Shown here piece by piece: positions 10,901 to 32,082 of a DNA stretch of 64,000 bases (its first letter is position 1; every line of letters starts with the position of its first letter). The position numbers and the translations under genes were made by a program. This stretch comes from Candidatus Poribacteria bacterium (GTDB lineage: Bacteria > Poribacteria > WGA-4E > WGA-3G): contig OZ240248.1 of assembly GCA_965198235.1 (NCBI GenBank), positions 3,168,001 through 3,232,000 on the forward strand, read 5' to 3'. The notes beneath the pieces are model-generated. The model saw only the letters and a program-made list of their open reading frames with translations, was not told where the DNA came from and did not search any database.

Positions 10901-13127
10901 GCTGCCAATTGTGGTAGGCGTAATTGAGGAATTCACGGATGGCTTTAGGATTGAGGATACCGTGGTTAAATTCATCGTAGATGTTTTGGACATCGACGAC
11001 TTTAGTGCGTAGTCCTTGTTGCGTGCGATGGTCGGCAAGGGGCTGAACGTCCTGAATAAAGTGATTATGTGTAATGATAATGTAGTCTGCTGCGTTGTGA
11101 GAGCTGCGCAGATCGGATGGAGCGTCTACCGAAATTTTCGGTTTTCGGAATTGGTTACGGGTAAGGGCAATGTATTGGATTGTAGGATCGCCCGTATCCT
11201 TAGGACGGATTTGGGTTGAACGGAAGGGAATTCTATAAGTACCAGGCACTTTAGGGTCAGTGAGCGCGGATAAGCCTACGTAGCGAGTGCCATCGATGCC
11301 GTAAATTTCGATGTCTGGTGTGGTAAAGTTTTTTAATTCGACTTTGAAGTTTGAGTTCACAGCACCTGTTTCGTCACGGAACGGAGTAATTGCAAAGGGT
11401 AGCACATCCGCTTTTGCTTTAAAATCTCGCCAGTAGTCGATTTGGAGCCAATTGAACAGGATGATATCGATAGGAGCTTCAGGGTTACCGGGATTTGTAA
11501 TCCGAATCGTGTTCTGTCCATTATTAAGAAAGGACTGCGGGATATCCTGATTATGAATTTGGTATTCGGTTTCGCCATTCCAGCGTGCTTCTCCAAATTC
11601 GATTTTATCGTTTAGCCAAATAGTGCATAGGTGCGGTGTATTGGATCTACCGTGGAGGCTGACTCGGACCCTTGTAGGTAGAGCAGTCTCGGAAACGCTG
11701 GGCAGATTGAAGTTAAATGTTTTTAATGCGGGAGCAGTCAGTTGTGCCCAGAACCAGCTGTCGTCTGGGAGGGGTGGCAGCTCCGTCAAACGGAACTGAC
11801 GCTGTAGTAACCCTTGACTAAATTCTGTATATGTCTGGCGTTCTGTAAGGTTTACATGACGGAAGTGCCTGAACTTTAGGTCTTTCTCGATATGTGCGCG
11901 CGTGAGGAAACGCTGGTAAGATTGCGTGTTACTTGTATTTGGGAGTGGCGTTTTCGTTCCCATCCGGATCCCTGGTCCCGCACCCCAGGAGAGCCAATAG
12001 ATGTTCTCATTGGAGTAAGGGTCGATGTAACTGGTCTCTCCGTGCTGGCGTTCGCCATAGAAAATAATTTCGTCTGTTGGGTTGAATCTTTGGGCGTCTT
12101 CGCCACGGACAAAAATTGGTATCTGCTTCCCTTTATTTGTTAGCGTTAAAGTCGCTGGAGCAATAGTCTCTAAATTGGCACCCGCAGCTGCGAGATCCTG
12201 CGCCGTAACGCTGTACATACCGGATTCGGTGACATTGATTTTATAACGCGGTCCTGTGAATGGAACGCTTGGTGCTGCAGGGGAACGCGCTTTTACAGAT
12301 GAAATGGGGGAAGAACGCCATTTAGTGGCACTCTGTGGGTTAACAAGCATATCGGCGAAGATTGCGTCATAAGCAGCAGATTCAGTATGTAAACCGCTTG
12401 GTATAGTAGATAACACAGTAGGCTGTGCAGACATCCCAGTTCTGCTAAAGCGTACCTCTACCACGAGTCGGTGGTAGAGTCTCACTTCACGGCGGGCAGG
12501 ATTGTACTGGACAGGATTCAGTTGGATCGGGAGGACGCGGTTCTCTCGGATCCAACCGGCTTTTCTGATTTCTACGAGACGCTCTGGGAAAAAACTATCT
12601 CTTTGCTTGCTTGAAGTGGACGCAATTGCTTCTATCTTACGCGTGCTAAAATCCCTATCGATCACCCGCAATTGGAAATCTACATCGGGTGGGACACTAA
12701 TGAGCGTAGATTGCATCGGAAGGCGCAGTGTTCCGAATTCGGTGGTGAAGTTACATCCGGGGAAAGATATGGTTGGACCTGCGGTGTTAGAGACCTGCAA
12801 GTTAGTGCCTAATTGCTCGGCTGATCCTATTCCGACACCACTATTATCGAAAAGGAAATCGGATTTAGGGATGACGAGTTGGATGGTTACGCCTTGCGAG
12901 GTACTACTGACTAATTCAATCTCTCTTTGGGTTTTTGCGCTGTTATTTGTTGAAGCACGAGCGCGTTGGTTTCTTAGGGTAATCGGTGCTGCAGCCGCGA
13001 TTCCAAAAGAGCGATCCGAGTTCGGGATAGGCAGCGGAGATGTTTTCAAGCAGAGGAAAAGAGCTATTAATAGTAGTGATAACCGTTTATAGGCAGGCGC
13101 GTGCAGTGCTATGGGACGAATTTGCAT
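7971..13127 (-). CDS. C25 (gingipain/PorU-like) cysteine peptidase with propeptide, CARDB-like and FlgD/T9SS-like C-terminal domains
   Basis: Signal peptide; ADYIIIT, IYDEF, YVFLIGD, IGRMP, catalytic YIGHG and MTCYTG, LFGDP; C-terminal NFPNPF...LANGVYLYK. Confidence 0.85.
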   Translation of the reverse strand: MQIRPIALHAPAYKRLSLLLIALFLCLKTSPLPIPNSDRSFGIAAAAPITLRNQRARASTNNSAKTQREIELVSSTSQGVTIQLVIPKSDFLFDNSGVGIGSAEQLGTNLQVSNTAGPTISFPGCNFTTEFGTLRLPMQSTLISVPPDVDFQLRVIDRDFSTRKIEAIASTSSKQRDSFFPERLVEIRKAGWIRENRVLPIQLNPVQYNPARREVRLYHRLVVEVRFSRTGMSAQPTVLSTIPSGLHTESAAYDAIFADMLVNPQSATKWRSSPISSVKARSPAAPSVPFTGPRYKINVTESGMYSVTAQDLAAAGANLETIAPATLTLTNKGKQIPIFVRGEDAQRFNPTDEIIFYGERQHGETSYIDPYSNENIYWLSWGAGPGIRMGTKTPLPNTSNTQSYQRFLTRAHIEKDLKFRHFRHVNLTERQTYTEFSQGLLQRQFRLTELPPLPDDSWFWAQLTAPALKTFNFNLPSVSETALPTRVRVSLHGRSNTPHLCTIWLNDKIEFGEARWNGETEYQIHNQDIPQSFLNNGQNTIRITNPGNPEAPIDIILFNWLQIDYWRDFKAKADVLPFAITPFRDETGAVNSNFKVELKNFTTPDIEIYGIDGTRYVGLSALTDPKVPGTYRIPFRSTQIRPKDTGDPTIQYIALTRNQFRKPKISVDAPSDLRSSHNAADYIIITHNHFIQDVQPLADHRTQQGLRTKVVDVQNIYDEFNHGILNPKAIREFLNYAYHNWQPPAPTYVFLIGDTNIDIKNKPNFVPTIQVQIPGYGSGASDHQFVTFRGEDSFPDMLIGRMPANNRVDLRIFIERTINYETSAPVGSWHKRFLMLAGSDLRFHWQTTQLISHNQLIGRYETQRIYAPHTDEPTLSDDNILTPIGRRVIDGFNDGASIVNYIGHGGGGRWASSRMLDFADPEQNLTNISQLPLVISMTCYTGSFDGNKNSLAEELLRSENGGAVAVIGATSIGLLDGDYYLNAEIFDVIFNKEMYNFGAILAQAKTQFLINTPRFLDLAEVFTLFGDPATNLKIPSNKIQVTADISAEQGRNASQGDTLLSVSGTLPDRNFSGDAEITVVPTTETAISKNIKLKPEIVSIVNGQVSTEIRVSADPDFDVGAVQIYAWNADEEALGHATYNILSRYVNNVRLVPFPVAPNQPAHLYVEVADENAIDEMTLFWSLDGHEFFTIPVVPHTGTTYRSERPIPGYPYGEIIDYYAEIKVKSGRTFHTELVTYDVGYDEIDIDLVVLDQTLTWDTTPPFTLSAQVRNRENQTARNVPVQFFVKALSGNTDTPTNTNVSVAAILQELQNATPIGDLQILPEVLPGSQVVVHVPWQPPPGEYLVTVYVDPPSAEHPQGSIIEERERNNWTSRRFSGNRIILTPETLDQPIQSPDGIFRIAVPSGSVQTSTVLTYAEEALTITNQPDITAALSTSALAYQFDLEESGLQTPPTLTVTATFQKERNGDAHIYRRDNDNGNWIRVGEATTSGDLISAEVKLPGTFALLSHSDTSPPALALTFDHQGFVDGDYVSDTPTISAQIEDANGIDSRPENIILTKNGENVSQDEYVIAASPTNNNLLLITYTPVLEPGEYRIRLQAQDANGNISDTDRTATVAGEFEIKNIANFPNPFVPGSGTHFAYYLTESADEVSLKIYTITGRRIIAIDTLDASVSFNEFYYDGYDGDGEPLANGVYLYKFTARKGDVRKQKVGKIAVRK

Positions 13128-13202
13128 TTTTTTAATTATTGGGTTTCTGCTCCGATTGGTCTTACAGCCCAATCGGGTTTTCGATGCATTTTTGAGGCAT
13201 CG
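13128..13202 (-). promoter_or_regulatory. Two-hairpin start-codon-anchored leader element (C25 copy)
   Basis: P1 GATGC/GCATC, GAAAAC, P2 CCGATTGG/CCAATCGG, 24 nt tail, ATG. Confidence 0.7.
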
Positions 13203-13446
13203 GTGGTGATTAAAGGGTTTAAAGGCTTACCGTCAATAATATATGTGCCTTAAGGCTAATGTGTGTATTTTATGGTTTTAGTTCCGATTATAGTCTTTGT
13301 TGTGGGTCGTCTCATTTTTCTTTAAGTAATGTGAGGGGTATAGAGAACCGAGAGGTAAATGCTCCTGACTTTAGACATATAGGATTGCTTGTTCGGCGCG
13401 CCTGCCGAGCGAGGTATTTCTGCGGATTTCTCCGGGGGTCTCGCTG

Positions 13447-13473
13447 GTAGGGGTTGGTTAACCCAACCCCTAC
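13447..13473. repeat. GTAG-type REP-like palindrome
   Basis: GTAGGGGTTGG-TTAAC-CCAACCCCTAC. Confidence 0.75.
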
Positions 13474-13500
13474 TGGTAGGTGTGCGATTGGAGGTCGCAC

Positions 13501-14094
13501 TTACTTGTTTTCAGCGAGATGATAGATCTCAATTTCTCGAATTTGGGCGATCGCGGGTTGCATGACGCGATAGTGTGGATAGTATTGACCCACAAGGGTC
13601 GTCCGACGATCGACGATTTTGTCTCCCGGTTCTGCCACTATTTTATTCACAATGACATCATCAACGGTTCGGGTAACGGCGACGCGAATCATTTTCGTCC
13701 GGAAGTTCAATCTATCAAAGATGAACTCGGCTTGCGCGCGGTCGTCGCCAATATTGCGCCGCTGAATGATTGTATCAAAAGTCTCCCATTCACCGGTTTC
13801 AGGGTTCAGATAGTCCATCTTGAACCGGAATAGGTTGCTGTTGTGAATAATGATTTTTCGGACGGGATGGACCTCAGCGAATCTGATGATGAAATTCCGT
13901 TCATTGCGCGCTGGGAGTGTTGCCAACGTTTTCAGATTTCCATCGTTCATGCCGGGGTGATTCGCTTCGGTGCCGTAGGCGGCACTCGCTATATTTTCAC
14001 TGTACTGTGTGGATAACACCTGTGCAACTCTACACGCATTGAGGTATAAGCCCATGGCTATGAGGCAGCAGATAGTTAAAGTCATGCGTTTCAC
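13501..14094 (-). CDS. Hypothetical lipoprotein, discoidin/galactose-binding-like
   Basis: Lipobox LNAC; MNDGN and IREIEIY motifs; 4-bp overlap with eutN. Confidence 0.6.
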   Translation of the reverse strand: MKRMTLTICCLIAMGLYLNACRVAQVLSTQYSENIASAAYGTEANHPGMNDGNLKTLATLPARNERNFIIRFAEVHPVRKIIIHNSNLFRFKMDYLNPETGEWETFDTIIQRRNIGDDRAQAEFIFDRLNFRTKMIRVAVTRTVDDVIVNKIVAEPGDKIVDRRTTLVGQYYPHYRVMQPAIAQIREIEIYHLAENK

Positions 14095-14378
14095 GTTAGT
14101 TCCTCCTGAAGTGTTATATCGACCCGATCAACAATCCCCATGACGAGTTCTCGGATAGGTGCATCTTCAATGCCGAATACCTCTTGTGCAACACCCGGAC
14201 CTGCACCGACTATCACTGTGTCTCCTTCGCCGGCACCGACATAGTCGACAGCAATCGTTGGGGTGCGAACGAGTTCAGATTTGACGCTCAACGGTTGGAT
14301 GAGCAGCAGTGTGCGGTTTTCGTATGCAGAATGTTTAACGATAGAAACGACTTTTCCGATTACTTTGGCGATGTACAT
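14091..14378 (-). CDS. EutN/CcmL bacterial microcompartment vertex protein
   Basis: MYIAKVIGKVVS..KH...AVDYVGAGEGD...IVD. Confidence 0.9.
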   Translation of the reverse strand: MYIAKVIGKVVSIVKHSAYENRTLLLIQPLSVKSELVRTPTIAVDYVGAGEGDTVIVGAGPGVAQEVFGIEDAPIRELVMGIVDRVDITLQEELT

Positions 14379-14445
14379 TTTTTAACTATGAGCCTCTGGA
14401 CATTGTTCCACTACGTTCCACAATGGTTTCTGGTTAATTCCAACG
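14379..14445 (-). promoter_or_regulatory. Two-hairpin leader element (eutN copy)
   Basis: AGAAAC, P2 CATTGT/ACAATG, 22 nt tail TCCAGAGGCTCATAGTTAAAAA, ATG. Confidence 0.7.
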
Positions 14446-14458
14446 CGACTGCTGATGG

Positions 14459-14761
14459 CTATTCTTCTGACTGCTGACCGCCATTCTTTGTGTCAACCAG
14501 CGAAATAGAATCGACGATGCCAACGATGGCAACATCGACCGGCATCCGCTTACCCGGGATGACACTGACTGCATCGCCACCGGTAACGAAATAGACGGTT
14601 TCACCAACGCCTGCGTCGTGTAGCGTATCCACAGCGACGAGTGGTTCAGAAATGGGGTTGCGTTTCTCGTCTAAGGGTTGCACGATGAGGAGACGTGAGC
14701 CTTCTAAGCTCGGGTCTTTTCGTGTTGCGACGACGGTTCCAATAACTTTTCCTAAATCCAT
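14459..14761 (-). CDS. EutN/CcmL bacterial microcompartment vertex protein
   Basis: GKVIGTVVATRKDPSLEG...AVD...AGVGE...DVAIVGIVD. Confidence 0.92.
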   Translation of the reverse strand: MDLGKVIGTVVATRKDPSLEGSRLLIVQPLDEKRNPISEPLVAVDTLHDAGVGETVYFVTGGDAVSVIPGKRMPVDVAIVGIVDSISLVDTKNGGQQSEE

Positions 14762-14815
14762 TTTTTTAAACGATAGCCTCTTGCTCTCAGCTTAGGTGTT
14801 AATAGTTTAAAATCA

Positions 14816-16237
14816 TCATGAAACGAGATTGTACTCAACAAGTTTTGTATGGAGCGTATTCCGGTTAATGCCGAGGATATCTGACGCTTTACTCCGATTT
14901 CCTTTGGTGTGCTCAAGCACGATTTTAAAGAGCGGCTTCTCAAAGATCGCTCGGATTTCAGCATAAAGCTCATCTGGCGATGTTTCGGACTCCATATAGT
15001 GTTGAACGTACGTTTGAAGCAGATTATAAATTTGTACGTCAAGATTTCCCGGCTCACTGGCAGGGGTCGATTTTTCGAGTATCGGATCGAAATGCTCGGG
15101 CAATAACATTTGTCCTGAGCACATCACGAGTGCTCGCTTGATTGCGTTCTCTAATTCGCGCACGTTCCCGGGCCACTCATGAGTCGTGAGAAGTTTAGCA
15201 ACTTCCGCGGAGATGCCGATTTCGGAAAGTTGGTATTCTTCGATGAACCGACGCGCGAACAAATCTATGAGTTCTGATATGTCCTCTTTTCGTTCTCGGA
15301 GAGGTGGCAAGGAGATGGGAATGACGTTGAGACGATAGTAGAGGTCCTCCCTGAAGGCTTTCTGCTCAATCGCGGTTTCAAGCCGTCGGTTGGTTGCAGC
15401 GATGATTCTGACATCGACAGCGTGGATCTCGGTTCCGCCCATCGGTTCGACCTCTCGTTCTTGGAGGACGCGCAACAATTTCATCTGAACTTCAATCGGC
15501 AGTTCTCCGATTTCATCGAGGAAGATGGTCCCGCTGTCTGCTTGTTGGAATTTTCCCTTCCTTGCGGTGTGCGCATCGGTATACGCACCTTTGACGTGTC
15601 CAAAGAGCGCACTTTCGATAAGACTCGAAGGCATGGCACCGCAATCGACGACGACGAACGGATTGTCGGCTCGGTCGCTGTTTTGATGGATGAGTTGGGC
15701 GACAAGTTCTTTACCTGTGCCGCTTTCACCGAAAACGAGGACGGTTTCGTCACTGACAGCGGCGCGTCCAATCTTATGGTAGACCTCCTGCATTGCCGGA
15801 CTCTGCCCGACCATTCTCCCCTGTCCCTCAACATCAATGGAGGTTGTGGATGTCTTGACGTTTTTCGTTTGGTTGCTGGCATCTGCAGCGCGCGAGACGA
15901 GGTCGAGCAAGTGCCGCTGATCGATCGGTTTTGTGAGGTATCCGTAGGCGCGTTGCTTTGCTGCGTCAATGGCAGTCTGTGTGGTTCCGTGTGCCGTGAT
16001 TATAATAATCGAGGCGGTGTTATTGTAACCCTGAATGTCCTCGATGAGTTCAATTCCGTTGGCATCCCCTAACCAAATGTCGAGCAGAATGACATCAACG
16101 TTCGTTTTCTTGATACAGGCAAGCGTCTCCGCTCCATTTCGGGCTTTTAGCGTCTCATAGCCTGCCCTCTGGAGAGTAGCGGCGAGTATTTGTCGGAGGC
16201 TGTCGTCATCGTCAGCGATAAGCACAAAATTTGACAT
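14816..16237 (-). CDS. Sigma-54-dependent response regulator (NtrC family)
   Basis: Receiver domain; GESGTGKE; GAYTDA (GAFTGA variant); WPGNVRELEN; C-terminal Fis HTH. Confidence 0.93.
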   Translation of the reverse strand: MSNFVLIADDDDSLRQILAATLQRAGYETLKARNGAETLACIKKTNVDVILLDIWLGDANGIELIEDIQGYNNTASIIIITAHGTTQTAIDAAKQRAYGYLTKPIDQRHLLDLVSRAADASNQTKNVKTSTTSIDVEGQGRMVGQSPAMQEVYHKIGRAAVSDETVLVFGESGTGKELVAQLIHQNSDRADNPFVVVDCGAMPSSLIESALFGHVKGAYTDAHTARKGKFQQADSGTIFLDEIGELPIEVQMKLLRVLQEREVEPMGGTEIHAVDVRIIAATNRRLETAIEQKAFREDLYYRLNVIPISLPPLRERKEDISELIDLFARRFIEEYQLSEIGISAEVAKLLTTHEWPGNVRELENAIKRALVMCSGQMLLPEHFDPILEKSTPASEPGNLDVQIYNLLQTYVQHYMESETSPDELYAEIRAIFEKPLFKIVLEHTKGNRSKASDILGINRNTLHTKLVEYNLVS

Positions 16238-16420
16238 TTTTTTAATTATTAAATCTGGTCACCGTTCCAAATGTAAAGCAAAGACAAATTATGCCATTTA
16301 AGGAAACCTAATTTCATTTCACGGTGGTGTCTGGTGAAGTCAGAAACCTTTCAGCACCTGGAGCTGGTTGGAATTCACCGATTCCCATAGTTAGCAAATC
16401 ATTTCATAGGGGTTTCTGGT
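16238..16420 (-). promoter_or_regulatory. Two-hairpin leader element plus upstream partial unit (regulator copy)
   Basis: P1 GGTGAA/TTCACC, AGACAC, P2 CACCGT/ACGGTG, 22 nt tail, ATG. Confidence 0.7.
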
Positions 16421-16442
16421 AGTCGGTGCTATGGATATATCT

Positions 16443-18014
16443 TCAATGGACAGGAAGGGACATAACAAACGCTGTACCGACTTCGAGGTTCGCATCGACT
16501 TCAATGCCGCCTCGGTGTTCGGCGAGAATTTTTTGGCTGATGTAAAGTCCCAACCCGGTTCCTTTCTGTTTAGTGGTATAAAACGGATCGAACAGCATCG
16601 GTATATCTTCAGGTGAAATCCCGGGTCCGTCATCTTGAACTCGTACATGCACAATTTCCGTTTCTGGAACGTATTCTGTCTGAATTGTCAAAATTCCGTC
16701 TGTGTCCATTGCTTCTATGGCGTTGTAAAATAGATTCAGAAGCACTTGTGTGATTCCGTCCTCATTTACATTGACCTCTGGACAGTCGCCGTATTGCGTG
16801 ATGACTGTGGTAGCGCGAAGCTCCAACTCTGGTCGGCAGATAGCCAGGCTATTATCAAGAAGTTGATGGATATCGCTCTGTTTTGCGACTTCCATTGTGG
16901 GTTTACTGAAGGCGAGTAATTGTTCAATGAATCGGTTCAGCCTGTCCACCTCTTTTATAATGATCCCTGTGTATTCCTTAATCTCATTTTGAGAGAGTTG
17001 GCCGTTTTTGAAATAAGTTTCGACTTGTGAACCGAACTCTACATCGCTGTGTTGGAGCAGTTGTGTGCCGAGTCGGATGCTACCTAAAGGATTTCGGACC
17101 TCGTGTGCTATAGTTCGGACCAACCGACCAAGGGTCGCCATCCGTTCAGATTCAACGAGGGCGTCGATGGTCTGTTGGATTTTGACGCGCTGTGCAATAA
17201 TAGAGGCGATAATTGTCAAGAGCCGCCGATCATCCTCTGCGGAAAATTCATCTGAGGCTTTGTCTATCGTTAGTGTACCGATGACGTTTTCTTCTACAAT
17301 AATTGGGATGCACCAAAAGGCGATCACATCTTTGGATTCAACCCGTTCCGGCTCGAAGAGTTTGACGTAGCTGCGTGGGCTTCGGGTTTGTGGGACACCC
17401 ATCGCTTTCCCGGATGCAAGTACCTGTTTCTGGATGTCTTCCATCTGATTGTCAGTACCACGTTTCATCTCTGCTGGTGTCAGTCCTAAAACGGCTTCTG
17501 TGGAAGTAACGATCTTCCCGTTTTCATAGAGATGCAGAGCCCCGCGATAGATACCGAGTCGCTTGGATAAAATTTCAATGATACGCTGAAAGAGTCCCTC
17601 CAGATCGAGGTTGGTGTTCGCTGATTGGCTCACCTCAAAAAGCGTGGAGATGTCTCGGACCTGTTTTTCTAAATTTGCGTTGACACTGTTGATCTCTTCT
17701 ATCTGTTCGACCCCACTGCGTCTCTGGATTTGGAAGTGACGGATAATGCGGATAACGCCATAGACCACAAACGGATAGAGCAATGCTATGATAATACTTT
17801 CAGTATGATTCGGATAGCGGAAGACGTAAATCCAATTGGCTACAGCAGTAATGCCAAACAAAACGTTCTGCCCGCGAGGTTTCGCGTAGAGAACTGAGAG
17901 AACGATCACCCCGTAGTAGCAGTGACTCACCGCGGGATAGTATTCCGATATCTGAAACAGATGCGTACTGACGTTAATGAGAAGCACAAAGAGTGCGAGA
18001 AAGAACGTTAGCAT
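16443..18014 (-). CDS. Membrane GAF-domain sensor histidine kinase
   Basis: N-terminal TM helices; GAF; AHEVRNPL H-box; NAIEA, DDGPG and GTGLGL boxes. Confidence 0.92.
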   Translation of the reverse strand: MLTFFLALFVLLINVSTHLFQISEYYPAVSHCYYGVIVLSVLYAKPRGQNVLFGITAVANWIYVFRYPNHTESIIIALLYPFVVYGVIRIIRHFQIQRRSGVEQIEEINSVNANLEKQVRDISTLFEVSQSANTNLDLEGLFQRIIEILSKRLGIYRGALHLYENGKIVTSTEAVLGLTPAEMKRGTDNQMEDIQKQVLASGKAMGVPQTRSPRSYVKLFEPERVESKDVIAFWCIPIIVEENVIGTLTIDKASDEFSAEDDRRLLTIIASIIAQRVKIQQTIDALVESERMATLGRLVRTIAHEVRNPLGSIRLGTQLLQHSDVEFGSQVETYFKNGQLSQNEIKEYTGIIIKEVDRLNRFIEQLLAFSKPTMEVAKQSDIHQLLDNSLAICRPELELRATTVITQYGDCPEVNVNEDGITQVLLNLFYNAIEAMDTDGILTIQTEYVPETEIVHVRVQDDGPGISPEDIPMLFDPFYTTKQKGTGLGLYISQKILAEHRGGIEVDANLEVGTAFVMSLPVH

Positions 18015-18112
18015 TCTTTTAATTATTGAGTTTTCGTTCCGTTTTGTCCCCCCTTCCCAGTAACGGGTGAGGACCCCTGTCCAAAACGGGTTTTCGATAA
18101 ATTTATGCTATC
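18015..18112 (-). promoter_or_regulatory. Two-hairpin leader element (kinase copy)
   Basis: P1 GATA/TATC, GAAAAC, P2 CCGTTTTG/CAAAACGG, 24 nt tail, ATG. Confidence 0.7.
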
Positions 18113-18140
18113 ATTGTAATGAATTAGCGGCTTTCTTTAG

Positions 18141-18761
18141 TTAAAGGGTCAAAAAGTTATTGAGCATCTTTAACCCGACGCGCCCACTTTTTTCAAGGTG
18201 GAACTGTGTTGCAATGAGATTATCGTGAGCAATCGCACTACAGAATTCAAGTCCATACTTCGTCCTTCCGATTATGATGTCCTCTGTCTCTGGCTCAGGA
18301 TAGTAGGAATTGACGAAATAGAAGTGTGCGGGGTTCGGAACACCTTCAAAGATTGCGTGCGGTTTTGTCTGATACACTTCGTTCCAACCGATTTGCGGGA
18401 CCTTTAGTGTCTCGGTTTGTGTTTCTGTATCAGTCGCTGGATATTTCTTTACACATCCCGGTAGCAGATTTAAGCATTCGGCATCCTCTTCCTCACTGTG
18501 TTCAAAGAGGATCTGGATACCGATACAGATACCGAGCATAGGTTTGCCGGTACGGAAGAAGTCTGCGAGGACCTGGTTCAATCCGCGTTTCTGCAACGTT
18601 TGCATCGTGGCTTTTGCGGCACCGACACCGGGAAAAATAATACGTTCAGCGTCGAGTATCGTTTCTGCGGTGGATGTAATCTCGTTTTTATAACCGAGGT
18701 GTGTCAAGGCTCTCGCAACACTCGTAAGGTTCCCCGCTTCGTAATCTATAATTGCAATCAT
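18141..18761 (-). CDS. hisH: Imidazole glycerol phosphate synthase glutaminase subunit
   Basis: MIAIIDY..GNL.SV, PGVG, GICIG, QFHLEKS. Confidence 0.93.
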   Translation of the reverse strand: MIAIIDYEAGNLTSVARALTHLGYKNEITSTAETILDAERIIFPGVGAAKATMQTLQKRGLNQVLADFFRTGKPMLGICIGIQILFEHSEEEDAECLNLLPGCVKKYPATDTETQTETLKVPQIGWNEVYQTKPHAIFEGVPNPAHFYFVNSYYPEPETEDIIIGRTKYGLEFCSAIAHDNLIATQFHLEKSGRVGLKMLNNFLTL

Positions 18762-18861
18762 ATTTTTAACTCTTAACTCTGGGCATCGTTCCATTACATT
18801 CCACGATGGTTCCTGGTGAAGTCAGAAACCTTTGAGCCCCTGGAGCAGTTTAACCCTCACC
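18762..18861 (-). promoter_or_regulatory. Two-hairpin leader element (hisH copy)
   Basis: P1 GGTGAG/TTCACC, AGGAAC, P2 CATCGT/ACGATG, 22 nt tail, ATG. Confidence 0.7.
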
Positions 18862-19042
18862 TCGCCTCCGTTATAAATGTTAAAGCACGAGTGTTTTTGC
18901 TTGGGGTTTTTGCTTGGGTGTTTCTGCGGATTTCTTCGATGGTTAACAGATTCCCAGAGTTAGAAAATTTCACGGTGGTTTCTGGTGTAGGAGTGAGGTC
19001 ACCTCGCCCTTACGACTGGATTATAAAAGATTTCTTAACGAT

Positions 19043-19522
19043 TCAGATTCCGGTTTTGTCAATCGCTTTATGAAGGTTAACTGTCTCAATTCCTGCGATA
19101 GCGGCTTCAGAGCCTTTGTTTCCTGCCTTGATGCCGGCGCGCTCAAGTGCTTGTTCTATGGTATCTGTGGTGATGACGCCGTAGATAACAGGGATGTTGG
19201 TGCTGGAGGATATGTTAGCGATTCCCTTCGCGCTTTCGGCGGCGACATAATCAAAATGGGGGGTCGCACCTCGGATAACAGCACCGAGGCAGAGGACAGC
19301 ATCATAGCGTTCGCTTTCTGCGAGACGTTTGGCAATTCCCGGAATTTCGAAGGCACCGGGGGTCCAGAAAACATCGACAGTGTCCAAGTCGACACCGTGC
19401 CGTTTCAGGGCATCCAGCGCACCCGCAAGGAGTTTTTCAGTAACGAAACTATTGAATCGACTGACGACAATACCGAATGTGAGACCTTCACCGAGGAGAT
19501 GTCCTTCATAAACGTTTGGCAT
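19043..19522 (-). CDS. ribH: 6,7-dimethyl-8-ribityllumazine synthase
   Basis: [29 protein letters not shown]. Confidence 0.96.
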
Positions 19523-19785
19523 TTTTTAATTTATGGCTCCTGGTCTGTTTTTTAATCATGGTACTCCTGGACTGCTCTCCACTTCGTTACGAGCAGGTTC
19601 TTAGTGAATTGCACGTTCCTTCAACCTGCCATATTCCCTTTATCAGCGGGCAGTCGGACGTAGGGTTCACCGAGAACCCCCGCGTAATGTAATGGAGCGG
19701 TGCACAGGTGGCTATAGTTAGAAAATTTCGCGCAGGTTTTCGGTTAATTCGCGACTGGATTTAGGAATCTGTTCGCGATTTATAA
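19523..19785 (-). promoter_or_regulatory. Composite leader element with duplicated tail and inverted unit (ribH copy)
   Basis: P1 GGTGAA/TTCACT, AAGAAC, P2 CTGCTC/GAGCAG, two tandem CCAGGAG...TTAAAAA tails. Confidence 0.65.
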
Positions 19786-19840
19786 CTTGGTTATGCTTTT
19801 CTAATTTTCCGTGCCGTTCCTTGCTGATGGTTCCCGACGG

Positions 19841-21073
19841 CTATTCCTCATGTAGGAGGAGGTGGCCGAGTTTGGAACGTTTTGTTTCTAAATATCGGCG
19901 GTTAAATGTATTCGGTTTGGTTTGCAAGGGAACACGCTCGACGATTTCAAGCCCGTGCCCGGACAATCCTGTAACTTTTTGCGGGTTGTTTGTCATGAGT
20001 CGCATCTTTTGAACCCCTAAATCGGCTAATATTTGTGCACCGATGCCGTAGTCTCGCAAATCTGCGGGGAACCCAAGATGTTCATTCGCTTCGACGGTGT
20101 CTAATCCATCGTTGTCCTGCAACTGATATGCCCTGAGTTTCTCTTTGAGTCCCATGCCTCTGCCTTCTTGCCGCATATAGACGAGTACGCCCCTGCCTTC
20201 CTTCTCAATAGTTTTAAGGGCGGTTTCGAGTTGTTCGCCGCAATCGCATCTGAGGGAGCCAAAGACATCGCCAGTGAGACATTGCGAGTGCACGCGGACT
20301 AAGAGTGGGGCTGGATCGGTGAGATCGCCTTTTGTGAGTGCAATATGCGTTTTATCTGCCTCAACGGTTTCACCCCCTGTATCGGTACTTTCGTAGGCAT
20401 AAAGTTTGAACTCACCGTGTGCGGTTGGTATATCAGCGGTTGCGATGCGTCTAATCAGTGTCTCTGTCTCACGACGGTATGCGATGAGGTCGGTGATCGT
20501 GATGATTTTGAGTTGATGTTGCGCGGCGAACTCCATCAGTTCAGGAACGCGTGCCATGGTACCGTCTTCGTTGAGTATCTCACAGAGGACACCCGCCGGG
20601 TATAGTCCAGCCATACGTGCTAAATCGACGGTGGCTTCGGTATGTCCTGCTCGCCGGAGGACGCCCCCCGGTTTCGCCTCTAAGGGGAAGATATGTCCGG
20701 GGCGGACGAAATCTGAGGGGACAGCGTCAGAATCAACGAATTTCTGGATGGTATAGGCGCGTTCTTGTGCGGAGATGCCGGTTGTCACCTCTTTCGCATC
20801 AATGGTGACCGTGAAGGCGGTCTGCATTTGCGCCGTGTTGGCTGCCACCATGGGGTGAAGTTCAAGTTCGGCGAGGCGTTCCGAACAGGTAGGTAAGCAT
20901 ATCAACCCCCTGCCGTATTTCGCCATGAAATTAATCTGCTCTGCTGTCACCTTTTCAGCCGCCATGATGAGATCGCCTTCGTTCTCGCGATCGGGTTCAT
21001 CAACGACGATGATCATATCCCCATTTTGGATTGCAGAGAGTGCTTCAGGAATGGTATTAAATGTATTTGGCAT
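19841..21073 (-). CDS. ribBA: Bifunctional DHBP synthase / GTP cyclohydrolase II
   Basis: [40 protein letters not shown]. Confidence 0.96.
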
Positions 21074-31512: not shown

Positions 31513-31905
31513 TTAATACTCGTCGAAATTGACCACTTTCCATCGTCCATCAATCTGTTCGGTGTTAATAATGACGTTTCGGGTGTGCGTTGTCGTGCCT
31601 CTGGTTTTGATGGTGAGCCTGTAGTTGAATAATACGTGTGTTGAGTCCTCTTCTTTGCCGATAGGTTCGTATTCGATTTTCGGCATCTCATCCATCTGTT
31701 GCCCTGGAGACCGGACTTCACGCACACGAGCGATTTCATCTTCTAATTTTTCTGCCGCAAGCCCGTGGCTGAGTTGTAACGCCGCCGCTTGGTCAGCCCG
31801 CTGGTAGTAGTTATAGATAAAGTCTTCGCTGACACCGCGCGGTGTGTTTCTGTTTGAACACGCAAGTATTAACAGGATGAGCAGTAAGAGGTATCTCTGT
31901 TTCAT
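31513..31905 (-). CDS. Hypothetical lipoprotein (NTF2-like)
   Basis: Lipobox ILAC; ends GRWKVVNF. Confidence 0.6.
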   Translation of the reverse strand: MKQRYLLLLILLILACSNRNTPRGVSEDFIYNYYQRADQAAALQLSHGLAAEKLEDEIARVREVRSPGQQMDEMPKIEYEPIGKEEDSTHVLFNYRLTIKTRGTTTHTRNVIINTEQIDGRWKVVNFDEY

Positions 31906-32082
31906 TTTTCTAATTTACCTTGCGGCGTGCTGGCGTGGTTTTAGCAGGCACGTGCCTTTGAAAAATCTGAAGAAATACGCAGAAATACGCAGAAACACCC
32001 TATCAAAAACCCCTATCAAAAACACCCCTCCACTTCGTTACGGGCTACGTTTGAGATGTTGCTGATTGCTAATTGCTTTAGT

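Follow-up and report, generated by a model that had tools for sequence, protein, structure and literature searches.

Seven of eight neighbouring minus-strand genes in a 64-kb window of a Candidatus Poribacteria genome (the whole 64,000-nucleotide stretch analysed, positions 3,168,001 to 3,232,000 of contig OZ240248.1) start immediately behind an A-rich tail that ends in TTAAAA, in six cases preceded by a hairpin, and without a Shine-Dalgarno (SD) site at the usual spacing. We consider these leaders to be, more likely than not, copies of genus-specific, non-coding, hairpin-bearing interspersed repeats resembling miniature inverted-repeat transposable elements (MITEs) and REPINs (doublets of repetitive extragenic palindromic, or REP, sequences), with the copies that are co-oriented with a gene supplying it with an SD-less, A-rich leader. 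They are not a dedicated family of start-codon leaders. We take them to be dispersed and at least formerly mobile DNA because they form inverted doublets, nest within one another, range from one to at least 43 copies per genome within the genus, give way to unrelated repeats before the same ribH and hisH ATGs in sister species, and show no G-U bias in their stems. A first-pass annotation of the window had described them differently, as a two-hairpin leader anchored on start codons and perhaps acting as a structured RNA.

Leaders of the ribH to C25 peptidase genes

The window belongs to a 5.17-Mb, two-contig genome (G000, contigs C1 and C2; 96% complete) of a sponge symbiont; L-numbered loci and genomes below are other Poribacteria records. 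The minus-strand gene order is ribH, hisH, a GAF histidine kinase, a sigma-54 response regulator, two eutN genes, an unnamed open reading frame (ORF) and a C25 peptidase, and the gene names given in the first-pass annotation are borne out by Pfam (DMRL_synthase; GATase; GAF/HisKA/HATPase; Sigma54_activat with Response_reg; EutN_CcmL twice; Peptidase_C25). Tails ending TTAAAA(n)ATG precede seven of the eight genes, with minus-strand ATGs at 13127, 14378, 14761, 16237, 18014, 18761 and 19522. The pattern TTAAAA-N0-3-ATG occurs 12 times in the window, seven of them at these leaders, against 3.35 ± 1.9 in shuffled sequence, and none of 100 shuffles reaches 12. The eighth gene starts with a GTG at 14094 and overlaps the eutN stop codon, as had been noted, and no SD lies 5–10 nt upstream of any of the seven leader-bearing genes. 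The leaders and the mosaic spacer between ribH and hisH are as follows.

13128..13202, minus: C25-peptidase leader, a variant subtype with the same frame, with both hairpins seen in sequence and fold; P1 13202-13197/13187-13182, P2 13176-13169/13159-13152, tail 13151-13128, ATG 13127.
14379..14443, minus: family A copy that takes up the eutN-eutN spacer (nhmmer E 5e-17, model positions 2-65); P2 14425-14420/14406-14401, 13-nt loop 14419-14407, tail 14400-14379, ATG 14378.
14762..14785, minus: tail-only remnant before the eutN gene with ATG 14761, recognised from sequence and without a family A nhmmer match.
16238..16344, minus: family A copy before the sigma-54 regulator, matched by nhmmer as two halves (16344-16311 and 16269-16240); P2 16326-16321/16265-16260, tail 16259-16238, ATG 16237.
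18015..18089, minus: histidine-kinase leader, a variant subtype recognised from sequence, with P2 seen in the fold and the leader spanned by an RNA-library contig; P2 18089-18082/18046-18039, loop 35 nt, tail 18038-18015, ATG 18014.
18762..18826, minus: family A copy before hisH (nhmmer E 1e-15; fold); P2 18808-18803/18789-18784, tail 18783-18762, ATG 18761.
18827..19042, minus: mosaic ribH-hisH spacer combining a family A copy whose loop is interrupted, a palindromic element and short tandem repeats.
19523..19751, minus: ribH leader, nested (nhmmer matches and sequence); outer family A copy with 5' half 19751-19725 and leftover tail 19547-19523, its loop broken by an inverted doublet made of a reversed copy at 19664-19723 (plus strand) and a forward copy at 19611-19550 with P2 19596-19591/19577-19572; ATG 19522.

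The two-hairpin architecture that the first-pass annotation ascribed to these seven genes is correct for the tail, present in all of them, and for the second stem (P2), which differs in sequence and is fully Watson-Crick in six; the seventh, the eutN at 14761 described earlier as having degenerate stems, indeed retains the tail alone. It does not extend to the first stem (P1), which is not a single structure: it is a private hairpin at the C25 peptidase, a head-to-head junction with a truncated inverted copy at hisH and at the regulator, and absent from the other leaders. At hisH the stub of the inverted copy directly upstream of the leader is what had been read as P1. The regulator leader is split at its loop apex by a mini-element of ~41 nt (about 16310-16270), and ribH has a duplicated tail because a whole doublet interrupts the loop of the outer copy. 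Parts of the ribH-hisH spacer match many sites in this genome and in congeneric genomes. Short tandem repeats of the type GCTTGGGTGTTTCT / GCGGATTTCT lie at 18880-18960 (minus strand) and at many other genomic sites, where they are also found inserted within copies of families A and B.

We compared the predicted RNA folds of the leaders with those of shuffled sequences. Only the C25 leader folds better than its shuffles (z -3.75), the other six having z values from +0.53 to -0.83, and all seven predictions leave the A-rich tail unpaired. An unpaired tail and the lack of a normally spaced SD would suit a dedicated structured RNA leader that, at a set distance from the start codon, promotes SD-independent initiation or is bound by a protein or a processing enzyme, with inverted copies as by-products, but six of the seven leaders fold no better than shuffles. 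Together with the observations on orientation, stems and turnover described below, this makes such a leader unlikely.

The two EutN/CcmL vertex-protein genes (14091-14761, minus strand) lie directly downstream of the regulator and kinase pair. No gene for a shell hexamer was seen beside them within ~13.0-19.9 kb, the stretch of the window in which one was looked for.

Repeat families and copy number

A listing of all ORFs that start behind TTAAAA-N0-3-ATG showed that the leaders recur hundreds of times and fall into a few families. A core-motif pattern matched at least 102 stretches in the genome collection, and the records listed are Candidatus Poribacteria or 'uncultured bacterium' metagenome-assembled genomes (MAGs). 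We refer to the type at ribH, hisH, the regulator and eutN as family A, with the C25 and kinase leaders as variants that have the same frame. A profile built from 120 seed copies gave 360 nhmmer matches (E<=1e-3) in this genome, of which 285 are near full length; truncations at the 5' end (32) and the 3' end (36) are about equally common.

The half-unit is ~65 nt long and begins with a head that closes with ..TTAACC, followed by AGAAAC as a purine-rich linker, by a 6-bp stem whose arms vary freely in sequence but remain complementary and enclose a conserved 13-nt loop, and by a tail of the type CCAGGAGCC-CATAG-TTAAAAAA in which the invariant bases are the second T and the A's of TTAAAA. Half-units occur alone or as tails-out inverted doublets of ~150 nt. 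Family B is a longer element ending ..CCGCAAGGAAAATTAAAAAA with 251 nhmmer matches; its sole copy in the window (31901-32051, minus strand; nhmmer E 3e-13) is outside the stretch under study. A further type, family D, is a long hairpin of GTTATCAG/CTGATAAC-like heptamer runs that ends ..CTATAAAAAA right at the ATG. It is the commonest ribH/hisH leader in sister species, upstream of one or both genes at L004, L005, L007-L010 and L012, and is also found at sites in G000 such as C1:1061095.

Position and orientation relative to ORFs

We examined how the copies lie relative to genes using our own crude ORF and codon-usage caller (4093 genes), and because these calls are crude every distance to a start depends on the caller; in 23 of the 154 start-facing copies, for example, the longest-ORF rule places the start more than 10 nt inside the element. 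The copies are found almost exclusively between ORFs. Of the 285 near full-length family A copies, 154 point their A-rich tail at a gene start and 131 at the stop codon of a gene on the opposite strand, so that anchoring on start codons applies to about half of the copies in the genome and fails for the remainder. An ORF boundary is no more than 5 nt from the tail in 155 of the 285, compared with 16.2 ± 3.4 expected from uniform placement in the same spacers, and is that close to the head in only six. The first-pass annotation had proposed a genome scan in which random orientation and distance would speak against its reading: orientation proved close to random, and distance to the ORF boundary far from it.

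On the start-facing side, the ATG begins 0-5 nt past the model's TTAAAA end in 94 of 324 intact-tail copies with a sharp mode at 2 nt (61 copies), a regularity that favours a dedicated leader, but the 131 inverted copies hug stop codons just as tightly, which argues against one. In 39 of these the called stop begins 3-6 nt inside the model's TTAAAA end, and in another 17 it lies at +2 or +3 past the A-run. The ATG belongs to the gene and not to the element, since only two of the 131 stop-facing copies carry an ATG after the A-run. Family B behaves similarly, with 190 of 249 tails facing a start and 59 a stop, and with 114 and 38 of these, respectively, within 5 nt of the boundary (overlaps included).

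Copies are concentrated in spacers between co-directional genes, which hold 249 of the 285 compared with 196 expected by bases, and are scarce in divergent spacers (17 against 60 expected). We saw no pattern linking stem variant or doublet combination to start or stop context, and no replication-strand bias (177 copies with the forward strand leading and 177 lagging), although the latter is a weak test given an odd GC-skew curve. The cumulative GC skew of C1 has its minimum at ~0.3 Mb and its maximum at ~4.0 Mb, giving very unequal arms that may reflect rearrangement or misassembly.

Pairing and covariation of the P2 hairpin

The observation that P2 changes in sequence and stays paired holds throughout the genome. 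In the 285 copies Watson-Crick pairs account for 1603 of 1710 P2 cells, perfect stems come in 25 different versions, and four of the six pairs use three or four Watson-Crick pair types. In a second set of 113 copies, taken from the window and from other Poribacteria records, the proportion of paired cells is 98.6%, compared with 71.1% after shuffling (0 of 500 shuffles reached the observed value) and 19-58% with slid partners; changes on both sides account for 278 cells versus 101 in shuffled sets and involve six of eight pairs. P2 thus covaries strongly, which supports the first-pass annotation on this point. The 13-nt loop is found in 127 of 184 perfect-stem hairpins and itself closes as a two-pair mini-hairpin, formed by a covarying C-G or T-A pair (171 and 95 copies) and an A-T pair around a G-N-A three-base loop, and flanked by purine-purine oppositions. 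A G-N-A loop closed by C-G or T-A may be akin to the mini-hairpins known to be very stable as DNA.

P2 pairing is therefore strongly maintained, as a dedicated RNA leader would require, but there is no sign of maintenance on one RNA strand, because G-T and A-C mismatches are similarly frequent (23 and 29 of the 1710 cells) and stems are equally perfect in both contexts (117 of 154 start-facing and 102 of 131 stop-facing copies). The earlier statement that core-stem mismatches are of the G-U type is accordingly not general. Both features count against a dedicated leader. Of the proposal of a structured RNA for SD-independent initiation, the missing SD and the covarying stem stand, and the idea of a leader family as such does not, the repeat being present in both orientations.

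Inverted doublets and nested insertions

Consecutive family A matches no more than 600 nt apart are arranged tails-out in 72 cases, tails-in in three and in tandem in 14. The doublets have a modal length of 149-153 nt with an A-rich tail at each end, and 27 of the 54 with both tails intact fill the whole spacer between the stop codon of a gene and the ATG of its co-directional downstream neighbour.

This geometry raises the alternative that the doublets have been exapted as an intercistronic coupling module. Its mRNA would fold as one long hairpin with stop codon and ATG adjacent at the base of the stem, where the U-rich left tail pairs with the A-rich right tail; a terminating ribosome might melt this base and be handed over to the ATG, such that coupling would survive a 150-nt insertion without an SD. 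The 27 exact stop-to-ATG doublets favour this, as do ViennaRNA folds of nine doublets, which mostly join both tails in an outer stem (C1:1195908 does not), the excess of copies in tandem spacers, a filled site whose empty counterpart has a 1-nt spacer (below), and the use of different stems in the two halves, which avoids a perfect long palindrome. However, the majority of start-facing copies lack an inverted partner (the 360 matches include 72 pairs), and so do five of the seven leaders in the window. A paired A-run would, moreover, simply prevent initiation, and any palindrome inserted into a tiny spacer gives the same geometry trivially. We regard a coupling module as improbable.

Nesting is common. 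Among the 184 perfect-stem hairpins 55 have insertions of 36-315 nt in the loop, and about 30 of these insertions are one mini-element at the same apex position, the one also present in the regulator leader. A copy of this ~41-nt mini-element is present in C1 and absent from the 99-100% identical C2 haplotype. The C2 contig (43.9 kb) is a second haplotype of C1:775767-815774, with 99.3-100% identity. It also carries, at 16419-16648, a 230-nt segment comprising a family B copy, a stop codon and a new ATG that is missing from C1 at 792054/792055, where the two ORFs would be fused.

Turnover between species

Searched with a covariance model, all 44 genomes of the genus contain family A, compared with 2 of 32 in the sister genus and none of the other 44 in the phylum sample, in agreement with the earlier suggestion that the leaders are lineage-specific. 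Within the genus copy number is uneven, and some congeners have just 1-5.

If the leaders were conserved RNA elements they would be expected before orthologous genes. In 11 congeneric loci the ribH and hisH proteins are 84-97% identical and the first coding codon is unchanged (CCA after the ribH ATG), with a GTG start for hisH in L008 and L009. The sequence abutting the start, by species, is family A, family A with other loop inserts, family B, family D, a GTAG-type palindrome, or unrelated. A family A leader is found at ribH in 4 of 12 loci, and at hisH a full copy is found in 2 of 12 with a tail remnant in L006; the hisH copy of the window is kept at the orthologous site in one sister genome (L002), and other repeats are found there in the remaining ones. 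A leader conserved with its gene is thus not observed, and both the unrelated repeats before the same ATG and the congeners with so few copies argue against a dedicated leader.

Individual sites, compared between G000 and 8-kb stretches of other Poribacteria genomes, show the same turnover, being filled in one genome and empty in another. A site with a 1-nt spacer (TAGAATG) in G000 contains a 259-nt repeat block in L048, and one orthologous gene is preceded by AAGGAG-N8-ATG in G000 and by a family B tail in L047. In L096 and L095 the repeat lies upstream of a retained SD.

Translation signals and RNA evidence

G000 has a canonical anti-SD, CCTCC, at the 3' end of its 16S rRNA. We examined 1252 well-defined ATG starts and found that 369 have a GGAG that ends 5-10 nt before the ATG and 120 a TTAAAA that ends 0-2 nt before it, confirming the earlier impression that the leader-bearing genes lack an SD at normal spacing while other genes have one. 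Upstream of the TTAAAA starts there is a secondary GGAG peak at -14/-15 whose source is the family A tail. Tails with GGAG are found in 48 of 154 start-facing and in 19 of 131 stop-facing copies (Fisher p 0.001), and in 33 of 81 versus 11 of 74 when only abutting copies are counted; because the copies are related and not independent, p-values of this kind overstate the significance. This enrichment is a further point in favour of a dedicated leader.

We inspected RNA-library contigs from four metatranscriptome runs of one study. These continue past the coding sequence into the leaders: X1 record 6 (16396-18740) spans the kinase leader, and X1 record 8 extends from inside ribH to 19599. The contigs break at repeats and show neither RNA 5' or 3' ends, nor strand, nor level, and DNA carry-over is possible; high depth over repeat bins is due to repeat copy number.

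An outward promoter in the tail is another possible explanation, in which an ATAGT/ATAAT-like box ~7 nt before the ATG, with TGGA in the loop as a weak -35, would give leaderless mRNAs beginning at the abutting ATG. The fixed spacing from tail to ATG and the lack of an SD are consistent with this, and one consensus promoter match ends 8 nt before the kinase ATG. However, a sigma-70 scan found 10 sites in the region, at the chance level of 8.1 ± 2.7 in shuffled sequence, and only one of the seven tails scores, although the consensus used may not be that of the phylum. The invariant tail bases are not -10 box positions, RNA-library contigs reach 32-77 nt upstream of the regulator and ribH ATGs as well as crossing the kinase leader, and copies are depleted from the divergent spacers where promoters lie. 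A promoter of this kind is extremely unlikely.

The elements might also act on RNA stability or processing in the manner of REP sequences, bacterial interspersed mosaic elements (BIMEs) or Correia elements, as 3' stabilisers or as targets of a double-strand RNase that segment operon mRNAs in either orientation. Their presence in both orientations, mostly between co-directional genes, would be accounted for, doublets are predicted to form long duplexes, and RNA-library contigs cover the elements. Yet a 6-bp stem with a 13-nt loop is weak as RNA, the abutment of ORFs by the tail and not the head is left unexplained, and RNA ends are unreadable from the contigs; we judge such a role to be very unlikely. 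Nor does P2 resemble a terminator: the sequence after the stem, read in the two orientations, is CCCAGG.. or GGTTTCTGG.. and not a T-run, and none of the 11 terminator-like matches in the region, a number at chance level, coincides with a P2 hairpin.

Relationship to known repeats and search for a mobiliser

The first-pass annotation did not recognise the leaders as a known family, and our searches agree. Rfam gave no matches in the window at gathering thresholds, and relaxed searches (12900-20000 at E<=10, and four related loci at E<=1) gave only chance-level hits, the best of them to unrelated families at E 0.025-3.4 and well short of the thresholds of those families. Literature searches on Poribacteria repeats, palindromes and MITEs, with subscription journals and supplements outside their scope, found no description of these repeats among the papers listed, which judging by their titles deal with other subjects such as sponge metagenomes and CRISPR/defence, and those on MITEs with ribosome binding sites and translational coupling returned general coupling papers only.

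REP/BIME sequences and REPIN doublets are reported to be mobilised by REP-associated tyrosine transposases (RAYTs; Bertels and Rainey 2011, PMC3116915, PMC3337134). These sequences resemble family A in being short, extragenic, palindromic hairpins with hundreds of copies that form inverted doublets, lie between operon genes and are lineage-restricted. Unlike REPINs, family A has no link to a RAYT and its doublet halves never share a stem (0/46), and its unit is longer, with a non-palindromic head, an A-rich tail and a strict tail-to-ORF polarity.

Correia, ERIC/IRU, RUP and BOX elements are bacterial MITEs that are co-transcribed with neighbouring genes. Family A is like them in its non-coding length of ~65-150 nt, inverted-repeat architecture, presence/absence differences between close genomes and nesting, and in being able to become part of 5' or 3' untranslated regions. 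It is unlike them in having no readable target-site duplication or parent insertion sequence that we could find, in ending 0-3 nt from start or stop codons far above chance, and in replacing the SD region of housekeeping genes. To our knowledge, strict tail-to-ORF polarity, apex-specific nesting and never-identical doublet halves have no counterpart in the REP or MITE families described to date.

In Bacteroidota-type or S1-dependent initiation, translation starts independently of an SD on A-rich unstructured leaders. The likeness here is of mode and not of family: co-oriented copies place an A-rich tract, predicted to be unpaired, at -1 to -8 and have no SD 5-10 nt before the start. In contrast to Bacteroidota-type initiation, the Poribacteria host keeps a CCTCC anti-SD and most genes have a normal SD, such that A-rich leaders are a minority delivered by the repeat.

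The genome contains six Y1_Tnp genes, three of them IS200/IS605-like and three RAYT-like. The RAYT-like genes (159-163 aa; C1:3853757-3854101, 606918-607262 and 1898775-1899119) are flanked on both sides by a different palindrome, GCACCCC-GTAG-GGGTGC followed by TATGTCTATAG, and together with it look like a separate, classical REP/RAYT system. The GTAG palindrome is also found before hisH in L003 and in the ribH-hisH spacer of L006. The IS200/IS605-type TnpA genes (139-149 aa) are at C1:119838-120191, 4381488-4381841 and 4792784-4793137; two of the three lie within an 1848-bp repeat, and a second ORF directly follows each.

Discussion

Several results weigh against the reading of these leaders as interspersed repeats. 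We found no mobiliser: none of the six Y1_Tnp genes has a family A match within ~1 kb, on which ground mobilisation by a RAYT or an IS200/IS605 transposase is rejected. No reverse transcriptase (RVT_1) was found in the 96%-complete genome, and retroposition, an idea suggested by the A-rich tail, is likewise rejected, both for this reason and in view of the similar numbers of 5' and 3' truncations. Self-megablast of this genome gave 24 long repeated intervals, and none of the 16 inspected has A-like ends that would mark a parent insertion sequence. Comparison of target sites places junctions in A-runs or beside TAA or ATG, with no consistent duplication readable at 75-91% identity. The halves of a doublet share no P2 arm in 46 cases where about 4.5 would be expected, and their mean identity (0.62) is no greater than that of random copy pairs (0.65); with neither a shared stem nor extra identity, doublets are therefore unlike units copied whole. 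Simple random insertion does not explain the tail-to-ORF polarity, strong covariation is equally expected of a functional RNA, and the enrichment of GGAG in start-facing tails, taken with the depletion from divergent spacers, hints at selection on function and not at selfish spread alone.

We nevertheless favour interspersed repeats as the origin of the leaders. The elements would spread, or have once spread, as DNA, with the hairpin maintained at the DNA level or by the spreading mechanism. A copy that points at a downstream gene would passively become its 5' leader, exchanging the SD for an unpaired A-rich tract, to which many leader copies might add AGGAG ~15 nt upstream. Since no other sequence separates the repeat from the ATG, genes behind such copies would, judged from sequence, depend on an SD-poor, A-rich mode of initiation, and an inverted copy would supply or abut the stop codon of the gene that it faces. 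It is reasonable, on the same grounds, to regard SD-independent initiation as a consequence of the element and not as the reason for its existence.

A more far-reaching version is that the element is a portable gene-boundary cassette on which one Poribacteria genus relies, providing an SD-independent start, a doublet that bridges stop codon and ATG, and a stop codon when inverted. This would include re-initiation across ~150 nt, a putative bacterial analogue of shunting. We think it rather unlikely; were it true, the rule that tails and not heads abut ORFs would follow from selection for these functions or from targeting by a mechanism that recognises ORF boundaries.

If the leaders are indeed repeats, a few hundred ordinary genes, among them ribH and hisH and together roughly 5-8% of the crude gene set, have had their translation-initiation regions rewritten by a repeat. 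On a practical level such repeats cause breaks in assemblies, and in Poribacteria MAGs they can lead start-codon calling and the discovery of RNA motifs astray. The tail polarity, the nesting at the apex and the never-identical halves point to a mechanism of insertion or maintenance behind these repeats. Because the host otherwise uses canonical SD sites, the genus would also offer a natural experiment on how important SD pairing is, and on how far a genome tolerates insertions at ORF boundaries.

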